From Minisyncoccota bacterium (GTDB taxonomy: Bacteria; Patescibacteriota; Minisyncoccia; Phycocordibacterales; PALSA-1337): a stretch of DNA of 64,000 nucleotides. The notes below the pieces were generated by a model. That model was not told where the DNA came from. It was given only the letters and a program-made list of their open reading frames with translations, and ran no database searches. Where the stretch lies: assembly GCA_035495115.1 (NCBI GenBank), contig DATJGJ010000010.1, positions 2,407-66,406 of the forward strand, written 5' to 3'. Of this stretch, positions 3,257 through 63,054 are shown piece after piece; position 1 is the stretch's first letter, and each line of letters begins with the position of its first letter. A program made the position numbers and the translations under genes.

Positions 3257-3478
3257 TTATTTAATCGCACTATTTAAATCGTTCTTTAATGTTTGGATAT
3301 CGTCAGGCGCTTTGTTTGTTCGGATGGTAATAGTAGTAGATGTTGCCGAGTCGGATTGAAGCAAGGCTTGACGATTGATATGTGAAGCAAATACATAGAG
3401 AGCAGCGGTGATCACTACGATAATGACAACAAGTGTCCCTATGATAGGTCCGACATTTTTACTCTCTTTTTTTTGCAT
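3257..3478 (-). CDS. Small membrane-anchored hypothetical protein
   Basis: Internal start MQKKESKNVGPIIGTLVVIIVVITAALYVFA gives a single TM helix. Overlaps the upstream ORF by 20 nt. Confidence 0.35.
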   Translation of the reverse strand: MQKKESKNVGPIIGTLVVIIVVITAALYVFASHINRQALLQSDSATSTTITIRTNKAPDDIQTLKNDLNSAIK

Positions 3479-3914
3479 ACGTTGTTTTGTGTGGTGTTGA
3501 AGATGCCTGTTCGATTGCGGCGGTGATGTCATTGAGTACGCCATTGAGCGCTTCCCGAGCCTGACTGAGGGCTACATATGCCGCTTGAGATTCGCGATAT
3601 GCTGGACGAGGGTTGGTATCAGTAACAGTAGACGTGGCATTGCCGACAGCTATGACTGCAAAATTCAATATACGATCTGCATTGCTGTACGAAGCGAGAG
3701 GGATAGTCATATCGGTGCCTGAAGCGACTTCTTTGTCTATGCGAGCGCCAATGCGCTCTTGAATGTTCTGCAAGTTAGCGAGCGATTGTTCAAGTGGAGC
3801 AAGGAGTATGCTATTGCGAAAATCACGCCCGATTTTACGCTCATAGTGAGCCTCATATCCTTGGCGGAGATTTTCTCCAAAATTGAATATATCAGGAATG
3901 TTGAAGAACATCAT
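3459..3914 (-). CDS. Hypothetical protein
   Basis: 151-aa ORF in an operon-like array with ppa and nusA. No motif recognised. Confidence 0.4.
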   Translation of the reverse strand: MMFFNIPDIFNFGENLRQGYEAHYERKIGRDFRNSILLAPLEQSLANLQNIQERIGARIDKEVASGTDMTIPLASYSNADRILNFAVIAVGNATSTVTDTNPRPAYRESQAAYVALSQAREALNGVLNDITAAIEQASSTPHKTTYAKKRE

Positions 3915-18160: not shown

Positions 18161-19561
18161 ATGAATCGAAGAGTCATTTTGTTTTGGATGATCATCATCG
18201 GTGGCGCGGCATTTCGCGTCATTGTCTCTTTGAACGTGCCTGTTCCAGAGATTGGAAATTGTTCGAAACAAGAAGTGCAAGGAGAAGGAGTCATCGCTGC
18301 GGATCCTTCATTTGCTGAGAGCGGCCAGGTGCTCGTCGTAGATGTAAAACACATTTCACAAAAAGGGTCAGTGGAAAATGAATGCCCATCTGGTATCACA
18401 ATCCGCATGAAGACAAAACTATATCCGCATTTCCATTATGGAGATGAGATTATTTTTTCGGGAAAATTATCAGCGCCATTCAATTTTAAAAGTGATACTG
18501 GTAGAGCATTTGACTATACAGGATATCTGGCAAAGGACGATATTTTCTATGAGATAAAAAGTGCACAGGTCAAAGCTGATATAAATAGTATGAATAGGGA
18601 CACGAATGTCACAAATATATCGCAGTGGATCACTTCTATTCTGTATAAAATAAAAAGAGGTTTCGTAGATAATTTGAACCAGACTCTCGGCGAGCCACAC
18701 TCTGCTCTTGCTGCTGGACTAGTTGTCGGCGAGAAAAGCGCGCTTGGAAAAGATCTGCTCAACGATTTTCGAACGGTCGGACTCATCCATATCGTCGTCC
18801 TCTCTGGATTCAATATCACTATCGTCGCTGATGCATTGCGTCGACTGCTCACTCGTCTACCCCGCGTATGGGGGATAGTCATTGGTGGCATCGGCATGAT
18901 TTTATTCGGGGTGCTTGTCGGCGGCGGTGCGACCGTCGTGCGCTCGTGCTTCATGGCGAGCATTGCACTCGGCGCAAGTATCATCCGCCGCGATTATCAT
19001 GTCGCTCGGGCGCTGCTCTTTGCTGGCTGTCTCATGCTCATACAAAACCCGCTCATCTTGTTGCACGATCCTTCATTCCAACTTTCATTTTTGGCGACGC
19101 TTGGTCTCATACTGCTTGCCACGCCTTTGGAGAGATTCTTTTATTTTATACCCGAAAAGTTTGGTATGCGTGGGATCTTTGCAGCGACATTTGCCACGCA
19201 GATATTCGTTTCACCTTTTATCCTCTATATGATGGGACAGATATCTATCATCGGTGTTGTCGCCAACATCTTGGTCCTCCCCTTGATACCGATCACTATG
19301 CTTGCAGTGTTCCTCACTGGTTCGATTGGTCTCATCTCCACATTCGTTTCACAGATCTGTGGCTGGGGCGCGCACCTACTGCTCACTTATGAGTTATTCA
19401 TCGTCGAGACATTTGCGCGAGTGCCATATGCATCCATTACATTTCCACAATTTTCTGGATGGTGGGTGGTGGGGTTTTACATTGTTTTCTTTTTGGTTAG
19501 GTTCAAAATGAATAAACCATTGACCCATTTATCGTTTTGGAGTAAGTTTTCAAATAGGTAA
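18161..19561 (+). CDS. comEC: ComEC/Rec2-like DNA internalisation channel (DUF4131 plus competence TM domain), lacking its MBL domain
   Basis: LGEPHSALAAGLVVGEKSALGKDLLNDFRTVGLIHIVVLSGFNITIVA is the conserved Competence domain motif. Multiple TM helices follow. Confidence 0.75.
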   Translation: MNRRVILFWMIIIGGAAFRVIVSLNVPVPEIGNCSKQEVQGEGVIAADPSFAESGQVLVVDVKHISQKGSVENECPSGITIRMKTKLYPHFHYGDEIIFSGKLSAPFNFKSDTGRAFDYTGYLAKDDIFYEIKSAQVKADINSMNRDTNVTNISQWITSILYKIKRGFVDNLNQTLGEPHSALAAGLVVGEKSALGKDLLNDFRTVGLIHIVVLSGFNITIVADALRRLLTRLPRVWGIVIGGIGMILFGVLVGGGATVVRSCFMASIALGASIIRRDYHVARALLFAGCLMLIQNPLILLHDPSFQLSFLATLGLILLATPLERFFYFIPEKFGMRGIFAATFATQIFVSPFILYMMGQISIIGVVANILVLPLIPITMLAVFLTGSIGLISTFVSQICGWGAHLLLTYELFIVETFARVPYASITFPQFSGWWVVGFYIVFFLVRFKMNKPLTHLSFWSKFSNR

Positions 19562-57515: not shown

Positions 57516-57956
57516 ATGGTTGTTTTGATCGATTACCGCAAAGCTCACTTCGAATATGAGATCCTCGAGAAATACGAGGCTGGCATCGAGCTGCTCGGTT
57601 TCGAGGTGAAGTCGCTCAAAGGCAAGCATGGCTCTCTCGATGGGGCATATGTGCTCGTGAAGGGAGGCGAGGCGTGGATCCAAAACATGCTTATCCCTCC
57701 GTATCAGGAGAAGAATACGCCCAAAGACTATGAGCCGCGTCGCCATCGTCGGTTGATCATGAAAAAGAAGGAGATTGCGCAAATAGCTGATGTTGCCAAA
57801 GGATTGACAGTAGTGCCAATTTCAATGTACACTAAAAACAACCTTATCAAGGTCACCGTCGCTATCGTCAAAGGAAAAAAGAAGTATGATAAGAGAGAGA
57901 CGACAAAGAAACGCGAGGCAGATAGGGAGATGGGAAGGGTTATGAGGGATCGTTGA
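57516..57956 (+). CDS. smpB: SsrA-binding protein SmpB
   Basis: VLIDYRKAHFEYEILEKYEAGIELLGFEVKSLK...RRHRRLIMKKKEI. Start set at the internal ATG 57516. Confidence 0.85.
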   Translation: MVVLIDYRKAHFEYEILEKYEAGIELLGFEVKSLKGKHGSLDGAYVLVKGGEAWIQNMLIPPYQEKNTPKDYEPRRHRRLIMKKKEIAQIADVAKGLTVVPISMYTKNNLIKVTVAIVKGKKKYDKRETTKKREADREMGRVMRDR

Positions 57957-58049: not shown

Positions 58050-58417
58050 TCGGGGATGAATTTGGCATCGACAATCGACAGTTTTCGTTCGTGCGGTGCG
58101 AGCACCAGTAACTCGTAAATCTGCTGGAAATCCAATTGCAAAATCTTCTGTCTCTCCATATTTTGGAGCAAAGGACTTTCAATTCGCTCTCGTTTAACGA
58201 GGCCGTCTACCTACTGGGATCCTGACGGTAGGCTGGGCGTAATAACCTGGATGTAGGGCAGGTAGAGCTTCTCACTCTATCTCCTGAAACAATGAGATCG
58301 TGATCATGTGTTTTGTTTTCTTTCAAGCATGATCATTAAACTTTAAAGGATTCTACCACCGTAGAGTCGCTCGATGAACTTCGATTGCACGGCGGTTCGA
58401 TTCCGCCCATCTCCACC
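58050..58417 (+). ncRNA. ssrA: tmRNA (ssrA), one-piece, immediately downstream of smpB
   Basis: 5' GGGGATGAATTTGGCATCGAC (acceptor plus D-analog). 3' GGCGGTTCGATTCCGCCCATCTCCACC (T-arm plus acceptor, complementary to the 5' GGGGATG). An internal in-frame tag ORF ends in FALV-TAA. Confidence 0.75.
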
Positions 58418-58424
58418 GAAAACA

Positions 58425-58448
58425 GAAACCGCCTTGTGCGGTTTTTTG
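58425..58448 (+). terminator. Rho-independent terminator after tmRNA
   Basis: aaccgc-cttgt-gcggtt stem followed by T6. Confidence 0.5.
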
Positions 58449-58580
58449 TTTGAGGGGGAGTGAGCAAAGTGCCTACGCACTTTGCGTGGCGGAATCGAAA
58501 AGGCTCTCCCATATTTTCGATCCTTCGAAGCTTTAGCGCAGAAGGGGAGAAAATGGGAAGCCTGTACTGAAGCTGTAAGC

Positions 58581-58602
58581 TTCGATTCCGCCCATCTCCA
58601 CC
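58581..58602 (+). repeat. Exact 22-nt direct repeat of the tmRNA 3' end (att-like scar)
   Basis: TTCGATTCCGCCCATCTCCACC occurs at 58396-58417 and again at 58581-58602. Only the second copy is followed by A, giving CCA. Confidence 0.6.
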
Positions 58603-58706
58603 ATATTGACTTTTACAAAATAATATGCTATTATGTGCAATAGCAGTTTTTGAGGTATTCCTGCCTAACCACAGGACGAGAGGTGTGAGGCCTCATTTGA
58701 GAACTT

Positions 58707-58994
58707 ATGAAAATCCAAAAGAATGCTATTGGTGGACTTCAAGTTAAAAATGTCCATACGGACGTATTCAAAGCGATCTTGAAAGACCTGAATTCGAATC
58801 TACCGGATAGTCGTGGCAGCTGGGTTTTACCTTTTACTCAAGGTCACGCCATCCGAGACGATGACGATGGAGAAGGGTTCTTGGTTCTTTTCCCAAAATT
58901 TATTGACAACACCAAGACCCGACAGATGATTGAAAAAGCGCTTGGTATTAAATTAAAAAAATACAAAGTGATCACGATTTGGGACGAGCGCTGA
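58707..58994 (+). CDS. Hypothetical protein
   Basis: 95-aa ORF just downstream of the tmRNA 3'-end duplicate. No recognisable domain. Confidence 0.3.
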   Translation: MKIQKNAIGGLQVKNVHTDVFKAILKDLNSNLPDSRGSWVLPFTQGHAIRDDDDGEGFLVLFPKFIDNTKTRQMIEKALGIKLKKYKVITIWDER

Positions 58995-59072
58995 GGATCC
59001 CATAGAGTTAATTGTTCTGTATCATTGAACAATCATAAGCCCGTGGTAAAACCAGCGGGCTTTTTGTATAAA

Positions 59073-59696
59073 CTATTTTCTCACAAGCTCGATAATTTTG
59101 ACTAAAATAATCGCTCCAACCTGTATGACTATTCCTACAAGTATCAGTTGCAAAGCAATGGTAAGAAGGTTCGACAGGGGAGCGATATCGATAAATAAAA
59201 ATATGATAAGTGCCGGCCACATGTTTTTGATGTCTTGCCAGGAAGGACTGAGCATAGCACCAACATTGATGAATAAAAGAATGAGGACCCATGTCTGCCA
59301 GTGAAGGAGATTGATCTGGAAAATCAGACTGAGTAGGCTATTATATATATTTTCCAATACGACCGAATGTATTGCGAACTGACTATGTAAAACATATGAA
59401 TTTACAAGATATAAAAATATTAGGCCACCAAAAAGTGGCGCCAATGATATGAGCATGTTGCCGACAAGAGGGATTTTTGGTTTGCCGTAAACGACGCGAG
59501 GCTGCTCAGAGAATACTTTAAATTCATGTATGTGCGAACCGAGCACGACAGCAACCAATGCATGCGAGCTTTCGTGGATAAGCGCTCCTATATAGTACAA
59601 ATAGCGCGTAATATTTGAGTTGAGAAACTTCCAGTTGAGCCAGTTACTAAAGTAGGCGACTGCGATTACGATGAGGAGGATAAAGCCGGTAGTCAT
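59073..59696 (-). CDS. Polytopic membrane protein with an HExxH motif in a TM helix (putative intramembrane metalloprotease)
   Basis: About 6 TM helices. The motif is IGALIHESSHALVAVVLG. No LDG motif is present, so the family is uncertain. Confidence 0.4.
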   Translation of the reverse strand: MTTGFILLIVIAVAYFSNWLNWKFLNSNITRYLYYIGALIHESSHALVAVVLGSHIHEFKVFSEQPRVVYGKPKIPLVGNMLISLAPLFGGLIFLYLVNSYVLHSQFAIHSVVLENIYNSLLSLIFQINLLHWQTWVLILLFINVGAMLSPSWQDIKNMWPALIIFLFIDIAPLSNLLTIALQLILVGIVIQVGAIILVKIIELVRK

Positions 59697-59827
59697 TTGA
59701 TATAGGATAGCATTTTTATCCGAAGAGAAGTGTTGTTGACGGTATAAGAATAGTATGGTAATTTTTATTCTGAATCGTTGGAAACAGTTTCAATAAAAAA
59801 CAAATAACATATTACCTGGAGGAAAAA

Positions 59828-60268
59828 ATGATCATTGATACGACATCGTTTGCTGTCGGGTGCGCAACTCCCATTGTTTTGGGTGCTGCTGTTTATCTCG
59901 TTGGCAACAGGCTTCGTCATAAGTGCAAGACAGATGGGTGCGGATGCGGAACGGTGACCTATTATCGGTTGCTTCATCTGCACAATGTCCCCATGACTAA
60001 GAGCGGTTACAAAGTATATGCGGTTTACAAATTTCGTTCATGTAGCCGAGGCCATGTCTCGGTGTCCATGAAAACCAAAATGTTCTCGAACAGTCAGATT
60101 TGTTTGAAACCGGAAGCTGAGTTCGACTGGACGTCAGAAGTTGTCGAGCGCCTGTGCACCAAGGCAGGAATAAAAAATCCGGGAACTGATTTCATGGTTG
60201 ATCAATTCAGCAGCCCGAATGCAACCCCTCGGATACCTGTCATTGCATCGCACCATAGTCGGAAGTAA
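59828..60268 (+). CDS. Cys-rich hypothetical protein (uncertain gene)
   Basis: 146-aa ORF with CKTDGCGCG. A weak terminator follows. Confidence 0.25.
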   Translation: MIIDTTSFAVGCATPIVLGAAVYLVGNRLRHKCKTDGCGCGTVTYYRLLHLHNVPMTKSGYKVYAVYKFRSCSRGHVSVSMKTKMFSNSQICLKPEAEFDWTSEVVERLCTKAGIKNPGTDFMVDQFSSPNATPRIPVIASHHSRK

Positions 60269-60459
60269 TCGTGTTATTCTCACCAGCCACTCCTTTATTG
60301 GGGTGGCTTTTTGATTTAGTGAAATTATGTAAGCAAGCTTCCATAAATCCTCACTTGAGGCTATATTCGCAAAAGCTCATATATCGTCTGCGCTCAGACA
60401 TTATTACAACATGTAAACAAGTTGTAATAAGTCTTCACTTGACGCTATAATCAATTCCT

Positions 60460-62382
60460 ATGAATCCCCAAAATAATACGCCCCAAAACGGCCAGAATAC
60501 ACCTCAAAATAAGAAGGGAAAAGGGTTCCCAAAGATGAATTTCTTGAATTCGATCGCTACGGTCATTATCATCTTTTTGATCATTACGACTTTCTACGCG
60601 GAGTTTTCAGGCAAATCGACTTCAGGCACAGCGGTACCGCTTTCAACCTTGGCAAAGGATATCAAGAAAGGTCTGGTAACTTCACTCACTATCCAAGACA
60701 CTGAGGTTGTCGCACAGTACAAAGATAAGACTGTCAAAACAACTCAACGCGAAACGGACGCTTCGCTTACGGATAGTTTGAGTCGCTTTGGTGTGACATC
60801 GGCTGATCTTGGTTCTACGACGATCAGTGTTATTTCTCCATCCGGCTTCTGGTATTGGGTGGGACAACTTGCTCCGTTCATCGTTCCTCTGCTTTTCCTT
60901 GCACTTTTCATCTGGATGCTCTCGCGTCAGATGCGCGGTGCGGGCATGCAAGCCATGTCGTTCGGTCAGTCAAAGGCGCGCATCACTTTGCCTGATGATA
61001 CGAAGCAGAAGGTCACATTCAAGGATGTTGCAGGTGCAAAAGAAGCAAAACAAGAGCTCTCTGAGATTGTCGACTTCCTCAAGAATCCAAAGAAATTCAT
61101 CGACATTGGCGCTGAGATACCGAAGGGAGTGCTCCTCATGGGTGCGCCAGGTACCGGAAAGACCTTGCTCGCTCGCGCAGTAGCGGGTGAAGCAGGCGTT
61201 GCATTCTTTTCTATCTCTGGCTCAGAGTTCGTCGAAATGTTCGTTGGTGTCGGTGCATCACGCGTACGCGATCTCTTTCACATGGCAAAGCAAGCTGCTC
61301 CTGCTATCGTATTCGTCGATGAGATTGATGCTGTCGGTCGTGCTCGTGGTTCAGGCACTGGTGGCGGCAATGATGAGCGCGAACAGACATTGAACCAGAT
61401 CCTCGTAGAGATGGATGGTTTCGAGCAAAATCAAAAAGTCATCGTTATGGCTGCGACCAACCGTCCTGATGTGCTCGATCCAGCGCTCCTCCGTCCTGGC
61501 CGTTTTGACCGTCGCGTCACTATCGACCTTCCTGATCGCAGCGATCGCGAGGCTATCCTCACTGTTCACTCAAAGAAAAAGCAGTTCGCAGAAGACGTCA
61601 ACCTCAAAGTGGTCGCTGAACGTACACCTGGTTTCTCCGGCGCAGATCTTGCAAGTCTCATGAACGAAGCAGCTATCCTCGCTGCACGCGAAGACCGAAA
61701 GACGATTGGTCAGTTTGATCTCATCCGCTCTATTGAAAAGGTTATGCTCGGCCCAGAGCGCAAGAGCCACGTCCTCTCGCCAAAAGAAAAAGAGATCACG
61801 GCCTATCATGAAGCAGGTCACGCTATCGTCGCATCTGTTCTCCCGCACGCTGATCCAGTCCACAAGATCTCTATTATCTCTCGTGGCCGTGCTGCAGGAT
61901 ATACATTGAAATTACCGTTCGAAGAGCGCAAGCTCCAGTCGCGCAATGAATTCCTCGATGATATCGCTATGTCTCTCGGTGGATACGTGGCTGAGAAAAT
62001 GGTCTTTGGTGATATCACCACAGGCGCATCGAATGACCTTCAAGTCTCGACGGCCCTCGCGCGCGATATGGTCACTCGCTACGGTATGTCTGATAAGATC
62101 GGCCCTATCGCTCTTGAAAGCGCTCAGGGCAGAACACTCTTTGGCATGGGCGTCTCAGATCGTGAGTACTCAGAAACAGTAGCCGCTCTCATTGATGCTG
62201 AAGTATCAAAGATTATGACCGAAGCTCGTGAGCGCGCGATTGCTACTCTTGCTGAGCACAAGAAGGCATTTGAAGCAGTCTCGAAGCGCCTCGTAGAAGC
62301 TGAGACCATCGAACGCGAAGAGTATGAAAAGATAATCATCGCCAATGGTATTCCATTGAAAAGAGAGGCGAAGGTTGTGTAG
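60460..62382 (+). CDS. ftsH: ATP-dependent zinc metalloprotease FtsH
   Basis: TM anchor, AAA+ Walker [22 protein letters not shown], and HEAGHAIV zinc site. Confidence 0.95.
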
Positions 62383-62970: not shown

Positions 62971-63044
62971 CCGCCCTTAGCTCAGTTGGTTAGAGCACAG
63001 AGCTTATACCTCTGGGGTCCTTGGTTCGAATCCAAGAGGGCGGA
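62971..63044 (+). tRNA. tRNA-Ile with anticodon UAU (decodes AUA). CCA is not encoded.
   Basis: Manual cloverleaf: acceptor CCGCCCT/AGGGCGG, D-arm GCTC-AGTTGGTTA-GAGC, anticodon stem CAGAG/CTCTG with loop CT-TAT-AC, T-arm CTTGG-TTCGAAT-CCAAG, and discriminator A. Confidence 0.75.
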
Positions 63045-63054
63045 CAAGAAATAG

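Follow-up and report, generated by a model that had tools for sequence, protein, structure and literature searches.

The question raised by this locus is what the repeated end of its tmRNA gene, ssrA, marks. The DNA analysed is a 64,000-nt stretch, hereafter the window, of a Minisyncoccota bacterium (assembly GCA_035495115.1, contig DATJGJ010000010.1, positions 2,407-66,406 of the forward strand). Coordinates are those of the window unless another locus is named. An initial annotation of this DNA noticed that the last 22 nt of ssrA recur a short distance downstream and read the repeat as the signature of an integration. This study was concerned with the interval between the two copies, and the evidence on it comes from assembled sequence by comparison and folding. 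On balance, the segment from 58396/58418 to 58580/58602 probably represents a single insertion element of a small (~120-230 nt), non-coding and non-autonomous kind that inserts specifically at tRNA and tmRNA 3' ends, from the T-loop to the acceptor end, and is moved in trans. The unit has a fixed modular anatomy, recurs at many tRNA and tmRNA genes (tDNAs) with antisense segments matched to the local gene, and occurs in tandem and in the company of gene cassettes.

The repeated tail of ssrA and the interval behind it

The ssrA gene (58052-58417, + strand, encoding the tag AKSSVSPYFGAKDFQFALV*) was identified by ARAGORN and by Rfam (RF00023, 115.1 bits, E 3.4e-45). Both place its 3' limit at 58417/8 and describe a standard one-piece tmRNA, and smpB lies directly upstream (57516-57956; SmpB Pfam, E 9e-47). 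The tail of the gene, which will be called X, consists in the tmRNA alignment of the T-loop, the T-stem 3' strand, the acceptor 3' strand and ACC. It occupies 58396-58417 (copy 1) and is repeated directly at 58581-58602 (copy 2), both on the + strand. The exact recurrence of the 22-mer was confirmed, as TTCGATTCCGCCCATCTCCACC is found at these two places and nowhere else in the window. No third match was found in the window at up to 3 mismatches, with 0 expected from 100 shuffles; the search for a third copy that might bound a larger island, which had been recommended, therefore yielded none, degenerate matches included. One looser resemblance, TTCGATTGGTCTCATCTCCACA at 19321-19342 within a 466-aa open reading frame (ORF), matches the 22-mer at 17 of 22 positions. 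About 0.05 such matches are expected by chance, and this one is probably a coincidence.

Only the downstream copy yields CCA, as had been reported, since the next base is G after copy 1 (CCg) and A after copy 2. The spacing of 165 bp needed correction; the gap between the copies is 163 nt, and the distance from start to start is 185 nt. The tmRNA genes of relatives are mostly without an encoded CCA (they end ...CTCCAC, followed by AA). The insertion may have removed the encoded CCA from the window's ssrA, so that the gene now reads CCg and the displaced copy CCA.

Between the copies the modules stand in a definite order: after copy 1 come a terminator-like hairpin (t), an anti-acceptor segment (X'_b), a left hairpin followed by GT (hpL), a second antisense segment (X'_a), an inner hairpin (A), a right-end hairpin (hpR) and copy 2, all given on the + strand. 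The terminator and the GC-rich structured segment of the initial annotation are both present, the first at 58420-58451 with its T-run and the second at 58464-58485. Segment t folds as a palindromic hairpin, AAACCGC-CTTGT-GCGGTTT, flanked by an A-run and a T-run. This hairpin, followed by TTTTGTTT (58426-58451), has the composition of a rho-independent terminator, and t looks like an intrinsic terminator; the terminator scan scored the mirror site, on the - strand. Segment t is at the same time the apex of one long hairpin formed with X copy 1 and the anti-acceptor.

The anti-acceptor X'_b (58454-58462, GGGGGAGTG) folds back as a degenerate reverse complement of CATCTCCAC(C). In the relatives L003, L009, L041, L066 and L075 (loci are cited by number) the complement is perfect, GTGGAGATG. 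The left hairpin hpL (58463-58487) reads A-GCAAAGTGC-CTAC-GCACTTTGC-GT and pairs 58464-58472 with 58477-58485 around the loop 58473-58476. X'_a (58488-58499, GGCGGAATCGAA) is the exact reverse complement of TTCGATTCCGCC, the first 12 nt of X (T-loop and T-stem 3' strand), and is complementary at 12 of 12 positions to both X copies. An inverted copy of X, which the initial annotation overlooked, lies between the two direct copies, and hpL interrupts it precisely at the junction of acceptor and T-stem. The module X'_b-hpL-X'_a was described by a covariance model, R1, whose E-values are rough. Its single match in the window is 58454-58499 (54.6 bits, E 6e-13), the first 9 positions of which are X'_b.

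The remainder of the interval is also folded. Inner hairpin A (58501-58563) is imperfect, with the loops C-GAA-G (58526-58530) and C-GCA-G (58537-58541), and by comparison is homologous to the inner hairpin of L003. The right-end hairpin hpR (58569-58583), GAAGCT-GTA-AGCTTC, is preceded by TGTAC-TG and shares the last 3 nt of its 3' arm with the start of X copy 2. A right end of the form '...TGTAC TG nnnn TGTAA nnnn' is common to many family members. Folding from X through the inverted copy gave -57.7 kcal/mol (z = -8.6), and folding from the inverted copy through copy 2 gave -71.2 kcal/mol (z = -7.0). Closed as a circle, the 185-nt unit is 75% paired (z = -7.8), and as single-stranded DNA it has z-scores of -8.7 on the + strand and -7.2 on the - strand.

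The 163-nt interval contains no credible ORF of 60 aa or more and no ORF fragments. Rfam 15 at E <= 1 found nothing within 58418-58602 except a sub-threshold overlap with tmRNA_permuted, and in the homologous units of 6 loci it found no described RNA family. It had also been stated that the T-stem 5' half is not conserved at copy 2. It is indeed absent from the adjacent sequence, and neither ARAGORN nor Rfam finds a second tRNA or tmRNA gene. However, GGCGG is present 81 nt upstream, in the inverted copy, and thus the interval and copy 2 can fold into an acceptor/T-like helix.

The arrangement was reproduced in other assemblies. An independent Joint Genome Institute (JGI) contig (sample 3300045391) has the identical 751-nt spacing from smpB to the 95-aa ORF that follows copy 2, and in the Logan assembly SRR9009773 the region is divided between two contigs, which carry the same genes in the same order as the window. 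Thus, misassembly is unlikely. The two Logan contigs end near 58559 and 58586 and overlap within hpR/copy 2; the cause of this break may be a mixed population, with tandem or empty alleles, or low coverage. Look-ups of strain variants by exact protein found none but the window's own arrangement.

Recurrence and insertion at tRNA and tmRNA genes

For comparison, 80 Patescibacteria loci were fetched via smpB (Paceibacteria, namely Taylor-, Nomura-, Kaiser- and Vogelbacteria, and others), among which the best SmpB identity is 73%. The same architecture stands 3' of ssrA in at least 12-16 of ~64 Paceibacteria relatives. The module order of the window, including a compensated hpL, was found in L003, L009, L015, L041, L045, L066, L073, L075 and L078, and a variant scaffold without hpL in L002, L011, L021, L055 and L072. 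A tmRNA was detected in 62 loci, and in 7 of these the gene's own tail is repeated almost exactly 155-230 nt downstream; in an eighth, L011, the distance is 833 nt. An inverted T-arm copy follows ssrA by 50-90 nt in ~16 loci. The T-arm sequence varies by genome (CCGCC, CCCAG, CCCGC, CTCAC), and each duplicate fits its own gene. R1 gave 12 strong matches in 842 kb of Paceibacteria loci, 11 behind tmRNA and 1 behind a tRNA-Ile with anticodon UAU. The latter gene, in L017 (3240-3313), carries the module at 3345-3390 and a tail copy near 3465-3481. The window has a tRNA-Ile gene with this anticodon, which is unusual in bacteria, at 62971-63045; it is without a unit.

The flanks of the units indicate the direction of the event. 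The flank AAAAATAAG..GACTATATTTTTGTAGGATGCCG stands directly after the tmRNA in L009 and L063 and after copy 2 in L002, with an alignment score of 42 against a shuffle maximum of 25. A second flank, TCGACT...GCTCGCTCGTGGCAAGCCAC or TCGACT...CTCGTGGCAAGCCAC, abuts the tmRNA in L001 and L058 and abuts copy 2 in L041 and L078. It follows copy 2 in L003 as well, as judged against L001 only; L058 versus L003 scored 14, no better than shuffles. The scores for the TCGACT flank were otherwise 26-38 against shuffle maxima of 20-23, whereas the flank after copy 1 scored only 10-16. The initial reading of the direct repeat as the mark of an insertion at the ssrA 3' end is therefore supported, since the post-ssrA flank of empty relatives follows copy 2 in filled ones. 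Judged from these flanks, the interval was evidently inserted, and directly repeated copies of the target tail X bound it.

Three observations concern the flanks themselves. First, an origin of the terminator by fold-back of the native flank was considered and rejected, because the flanks after copy 1 and copy 2 are unrelated in most units, L231 excepted. Secondly, the native flank TCGACT...GCTCGCTCGTGGCAAGCCAC contains the hairpin GTGGC-AA-GCCAC without a T-run; the flank (L001 4669-4716, L058 1736-1780, L003 7070-7105, L078 7071-7105, L041 7159-7250) may be a 3'-processing or termination signal of those tmRNA genes. Third, AAAAATAAGGAGCGAAGCGACTATATTTTTGTAGGATGCCG followed by a hairpin and then by CCCCAC (L009 7087-7150, L063 6763-6830, L002 2729-2800) is a second small conserved element at the tmRNA 3' end in distant Patescibacteria, with a CCAC-like tail.

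Units occur in tandem in L066, L075, L055, L202/L243, L295 and L259. In L259 and L011, gene cassettes that are bounded by X and lack an integrase stand in series with small units. The cassette of L259 (3690-5470) carries a 339-aa RhuM-like ORF between tmRNA-tail copies, and that of L011 (958-1790) carries a 156-aa coiled-coil-like ORF, with a Fic-domain gene after it. These series resemble an integron-like array at a tDNA end.

A scan of JGI metagenomes with a pattern of hpL plus the T-loop complement, for which a few chance matches would be expected, found the module on at least 120 contigs. Among the matches listed, the stem of the variable hairpin is perfectly complementary in 113 of 125, and a same-strand tRNA or tmRNA gene ends no more than 700 nt upstream in 98 of 125, mostly at 16-70 nt. 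These upstream genes, again among the matches listed, span all isotypes (Ser 19, Gly 14, Arg 10, Lys 8, Val 8, Pro 7, Leu 6, tmRNA 5 and others). The antisense pieces are complementary to the local gene's own tail, and they track the genomic flank and not the CCA end. Many of the metagenome matches have a direct tail copy 120-200 nt downstream. R1 gave 130 matches in 100 metagenome loci, up to 4 per 15 kb. In total, more than 130 loci at many tRNA and tmRNA genes share the architecture and the covarying hairpin. In an alignment of hpL from 49 units, 98.9% of cells are paired and 103 are double-change cells, which none of 500 shuffles equalled.

Other features are constant or vary within limits. 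The left edge of copy 2 lies consistently inside the T-loop. In 47 units out of 47, t joins the final 10 nt of the gene to X'_b in an unbroken hairpin, which is frequently a perfect palindrome of 24-25 bp. The size of t varies. At one extreme it is a 50-nt terminator, at the other a 5-nt loop with the native terminator standing behind copy 2, and some family members have no more than a loop of 5-7 nt in its place. In L273 the antisense T segment fits the element-side copy and not the gene. Occupancy is patchy. A unit is present at ~17-25% of ssrA loci but at only 1-2 of the 47 tRNAs that those Paceibacteria loci contain, and in loci with several tRNAs 1-2 of 5-8 are occupied. L224 has two tRNA-Ser genes whose units share an identical hpL and a near-identical start of the inner region, while their antisense segments and apex hairpins differ. 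Copies on the same contig are otherwise mostly diverged, and the 64-kb window holds one copy.

Two scans of 2.9 million viral contigs gave a single module, that of L112. This locus (2150-2560, an IMG/VR provirus) has the module beside a P4-like integrase in GC-rich DNA, and its unit sits on the chromosomal side of the junction, outside the integrase side. The terminator of L112 shares 33 identical nt with one in a Variovorax phage (loci L112 2150-2560 and L321 1201-1233). A phage origin was rejected, since the viral scans gave only L112 and BLAST of the L112 region against plasmids and phages gave only the shared Variovorax phage terminator. The L112 copy suggests that the family also exists outside bacteria of the candidate phyla radiation (CPR). 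A full-text search of the published literature found no description of such units. The family is apparently a large, undescribed one of small elements at tRNA and tmRNA 3' ends, mostly in tiny-genome (CPR) bacteria.

Proposed movement in trans and the rival explanations

If the unit is an insertion element moved in trans, the following course can be proposed. The element would enter at or in the T-loop and bring its own copy of the gene's 3' end, together with a terminator in the present case. The tmRNA would stay intact, and its original CCA-encoding tail would be displaced downstream as copy 2. The active form may be a folded single strand, that of the tRNA-sense strand, in which X would pair with the inverted copy and so imitate the acceptor/T-arm helix of the target, with hpL at the point from which the tRNA body would extend. 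The enzyme acting in trans would be a recombinase or nuclease whose gene lies elsewhere. Gene conversion inside the palindrome could maintain the match of the inverted copy to the local gene, or re-establish it once the element has moved. The order X-t-X'-inner-X would be the product of a single exchange within X of a circle (X-t-X'-inner), and the empty site of this model would be the tmRNA body, a single X and then ATATTGAC. The narrower proposal is offered tentatively, as possible but doubtful, that the units constitute an undescribed class of miniature mobile DNA, in which hairpins active as single strands mimic a mini-tDNA, home to tDNA ends matched by their split antisense, hold hpL in place of the tRNA body, are moved in trans and are retargeted by templated conversion.

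The hairpin loops bear on whether the folded molecule is DNA or RNA. On the tRNA-sense strand, C-GNA-G was observed 58 times against 25.7 +/- 4.6 expected, while its reverse complement shows no excess (13 observed, 12.9 expected) and G-GNA-C is depleted (11 observed, 25.8 expected). Most frequent among the loops are T(GTA)A, C(GAA)G, C(GTA)G and C(GCA)G, and T-GTA-A leads among the inner loops (11 times); GNRA and UNCG loops are rare. Stable DNA mini-hairpins of the GNA type depend on a C-G closing pair (PMC3201870, PMC13037366), and the excess of C-GNA-G with the depletion of G-GNA-C agrees with this rule. The strand-specific C-GNA-G loops favour folded single-stranded DNA. Strand-specific selection of an RNA through G-U pairs was considered and rejected. 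There is no bias of G-U over A-C (hpL, GT/TG 4 versus AC/CA 4; X:X', 18 versus 23), and both strands of the unit fold about equally; thus, there is no sign of selection for wobble-tolerant RNA pairing. To judge by the GC skew of the window and the orientation of its genes, ssrA probably runs in the direction of replication, and its sense strand would then be the lagging-strand template.

Several points weigh against movement in trans. First, no recombinase, transposase or reverse transcriptase was among the Pfam families listed for 133 ORFs downstream of ssrA in 62 relatives, and clustering of the neighbours around ~110 units gave no recombinase cluster. Secondly, no excised form and no recently transposed identical copies were seen in the assemblies, L224 being a near-exception. 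Third, the model does not account for the matching of the antisense to each new target, and maintenance of the hairpin by compensatory change, together with X/X' complementarity, is equally expected of a structure useful to the host. In addition, t differs between units that share one scaffold, which is awkward for simple cut-and-paste. Lastly, the metagenome sample was selected by a pattern derived from the family itself, and its unit-bearing contigs look mostly CPR-like, except for L112, which looks beta-proteobacterial, and L224, which is GC-rich with an encoded CCA.

The rival that survives best is a cis element serving the host, that is, a structured 3' trailer (RNA or DNA) that benefits its tRNA or tmRNA gene. 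Such a trailer might serve in termination or as an insulator, might present a signal resembling a tRNA at which RNase P or RNase Z would cut the gene apart from downstream transcripts, or might act as an acceptor/T-helix decoy, and the match to the gene would be kept by concerted evolution of the repeats. Taken as a whole we regard this reading as rather unlikely. The strong, long-term covariation of hpL speaks for it, as does X', which tracks the local gene even where scaffolds have diverged. The position and orientation are fixed, in the same-strand, downstream arrangement given above for 98 of the 125 matches listed. In the fold of the unit with copy 2, an acceptor-like stem is accompanied by a hairpin resembling a D-arm (A-GC...GC-GU) and by an extended T-like helix, and co-transcription is expected in tRNA arrays (L224) and for units without their own terminator (L312). 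The strand specificity of the hairpin loops would also fit.

A trailer that benefits its gene is, however, difficult to reconcile with the patchy occupancy, both of ssrA loci and of tRNAs, or with filled/empty polymorphism and tandem copies. In the window and in most ssrA units the terminator precedes the structure, which would thus rarely be transcribed from the gene. In relatives the helix pairs the discriminator and C74, and A-U replaces G3-U70. By the rules of tRNA identity, a helix with paired discriminator and C74 and without G3-U70 is no mimic for aminoacylation and a poor substrate for RNase P. Furthermore, there is no G-U excess, the triloops are of the GNA type typical of DNA hairpins and not GNRA or UNCG, and no Rfam family matches.

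The initial annotation proposed a decayed islet, or an att site awaiting or left by an element. In this explanation the interval would be rubble between attL and attR of an integrase island or prophage in ssrA, or a leftover att site. A direct repeat that starts in the T-loop is the classical signature of tyrosine-integrase tDNA islands (Islander, PMC4383910), for which prophages and islands of the Ms6 type with a T-loop attB (PMC1762012) and the ssrA islands of Dehalococcoides (PMC3146451) also serve as comparison. Like such islands, the unit leaves the gene intact, displaces a direct 3' fragment beginning at the T-loop, supplies the gene's new 3' end from the insert (with a terminator here) and accretes in tandem. 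The larger X-bounded cassettes of L259 and L011 stand at the same site, and a P4-like integrase gene lies beside the unit of L112. Unlike these islands, the insert is 163 nt long and non-coding, with no integrase found, and contains a hairpin-split inverted copy of its target within a conserved scaffold of hairpins. The sequence left of the T-loop in copy 2 also lacks the T-stem 5' mimic of a symmetric core site. The intact gene and displaced fragment of an island are therefore present, while cargo of kilobase size is absent and an integrase was not detected by crude tests.

The absence of an integrase had been noted before and was borne out. None was found in the unit, in the ORFs after copy 2 or in the window, where the tests were crude: Pfam on 70 window ORFs gave no integrase or transposase among the families listed, which is a weak test, and a catalytic-motif regular expression run across the window gave no integrase match. 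The proposal of decay was not supported, since the interval is a complete structured unit (z = -7 to -9), and more than 130 loci carry its like. Decay would not leave one size, one order of modules, a covarying hairpin and an inverted copy matched to the target at so many independent places, and the interval has no ORF fragments and is 75% paired. There is no enrichment of integrases around units, the 2.9 million viral contigs are essentially devoid of the module, and the L112 unit lies outside the integrase side of its junction. A remnant of an island is for these reasons improbable.

Far less probable still are a degenerate second tmRNA, a duplication in tandem and a transitional stage on the way to a permuted, two-piece tmRNA gene. 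The order of T-arm/acceptor 3' strand, loop and acceptor-complementary strand is that of permuted tmRNA (RF04321), and weak tmRNA_permuted matches were obtained from Rfam for the window (24.6 bits) and for four relatives (24.5-28.8 bits). The tag region (58156-58167) and hairpin A (58509-58520) also resemble each other over 12 nt. However, every one of the matches, at 24-29 bits, is under the gathering score of 47, a complete one-piece tmRNA is present, and the same unit stands behind ordinary tRNA genes. No second gene is found by ARAGORN or Rfam, and the relatives have their discriminator and C74 paired and A-U at 3:70. Two related candidates were rejected. A mini-tmRNA or tag remnant (CTCTCC(C)ATATTTT(G/C)GA) was dropped because CATATTTT also occurs in units at ordinary tRNAs and is therefore not tag-derived. 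Hammerhead or other small ribozymes in type-B units, with their GATGAGAAC-like stretch, had no Rfam support.

An assembly artefact, by a chimeric join or a collapsed repeat at the palindrome, can practically be dismissed, for although the Logan contigs break within hpR/copy 2, the JGI contig has the same 751-nt spacing, homologous units are present in dozens of independent metagenome-assembled genomes and metagenomes, and the 22-nt repeat is shorter than the assembler k.

Neighbouring genes, related systems and significance

Three lineage-specific ORFs follow copy 2, at 58707-58994 (+ strand, 95 aa), 59073-59696 (- strand, 207 aa, with an HExxH motif) and 59828-60268 (+ strand, 146 aa). They had been called unannotatable, and they indeed have no match in Pfam, PHROG or NCBIfam, except that the 207-aa ORF has a sub-threshold Peptidase_M50B-like match of 20 bits. 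No homologues of the three were found in the 80 relatives' loci. Their inclusion in an islet of 1.8 kb was not upheld, since the region is not bounded by a third X and nothing ties it to the unit. It is a block of lineage-specific, variable ORFan genes. Beyond it lies ftsH (60460-62382), which is near smpB in 54 of the 80 relatives' loci; the synteny PLD-smpB-ssrA-...-ftsH is conserved. A sigma-70-like promoter, TTGACT-17-TATTAT with TG (58606-58634, + strand), is a consensus match only and belongs to the context of the 95-aa ORF, outside the unit. Upstream of ftsH a promoter-like sequence of 42 nt is duplicated (60327-60368 and 60411-60452, 79% identity), with a 14-nt palindrome (60401-60430) between the two. 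A past rearrangement at the ftsH-proximal border of the ORFan block may have left this duplication. Around units in general, the commonest neighbour is a YraN/UPF0102-like predicted endonuclease of 147 aa, at 7 of ~110 loci (for example, L228 1195-1638). Such a gene may simply be frequent near tRNAs in CPR genomes.

As a mobile element of the kind favoured here, the unit can be compared with three sets of known systems. The first comprises CIMEs (cis-mobilizable elements, which are att-flanked, lack an integrase and are mobilised in trans), miniature inverted-repeat transposable elements (MITEs), palindrome-associated transposable elements (PATEs) and repetitive extragenic palindromes with their bacterial interspersed mosaic elements (REP/BIME), all of which are non-autonomous mobile derivatives. 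Reviews of non-autonomous elements are available (PMC2229807, PMC3184786, PMC3733652). The unit resembles these elements in being small, non-coding, palindromic and multi-copy, presumably with an enzyme from elsewhere. Unlike them, it is strictly specific for tDNA 3' ends in site and orientation, it is bounded by direct target repeats of 14-24 nt and not by short target-site duplications, and it has no terminal inverted repeats of its own, its internal antisense changing with the target. Neither the terminal inverted repeats and short duplications of MITEs nor the hairpins and fixed 4-5-nt target of PATEs were found.

Folded single-strand recombination sites are known from integron attC and from the attP(+) hairpin of CTX-phi, which is used by XerCD. 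The unit shares with them an imperfect palindrome whose folded strand mimics a duplex target, strand-specific features, and gene-free cassettes and arrays. It differs in that no integron integrase, attI, GTTRRRY core or dif-like site was recognised and in its target, a tRNA-like gene end of ~21 nt. By inspection no RYYYAAC/GTTRRRY core pair is present in 58418-58602, where the T-loop reads GTTCGAT, and no IntI-like gene was seen in the window by tests that are weak. Third, in the IS200/IS605 family of insertion sequences (IS608) a subterminal hairpin acts with a DNA guide of 4 nt to recognise the cleavage site. As in IS608, there are left and right subterminal hairpins on one strand, a target-complementary segment stands at the 5' foot of the left hairpin, the target is repeated at the right end, and insertion is on the probable lagging-strand template. 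In contrast to IS608, the guides are 9 and 12 nt, no TnpA or TnpB is nearby, and the junction is apparently in the T-loop and not after the target.

The known occupants of tDNA ends are large and bear an integrase, whereas the occupant described here is gene-free, ~160 nt long and carries a mirror copy of its target. A short repeat of a tDNA tail need therefore not imply a lost prophage. Under either reading, R1 provides annotators with a model for a feature that current tools leave blank. If the unit serves the host, it would represent an unknown layer of tRNA and tmRNA gene architecture. If it is mobile, it would point to unrecognised machinery acting in trans and to a sequence-matched choice of target that is possibly re-programmable, and many of the 'tRNA fragments' and odd palindromes in CPR assemblies would be explained. 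The proposal of a new class of miniature mobile DNA, if true, would mean that a natural, DNA-encoded and guide-like targeting of tDNA ends is abundant in CPR bacteria.

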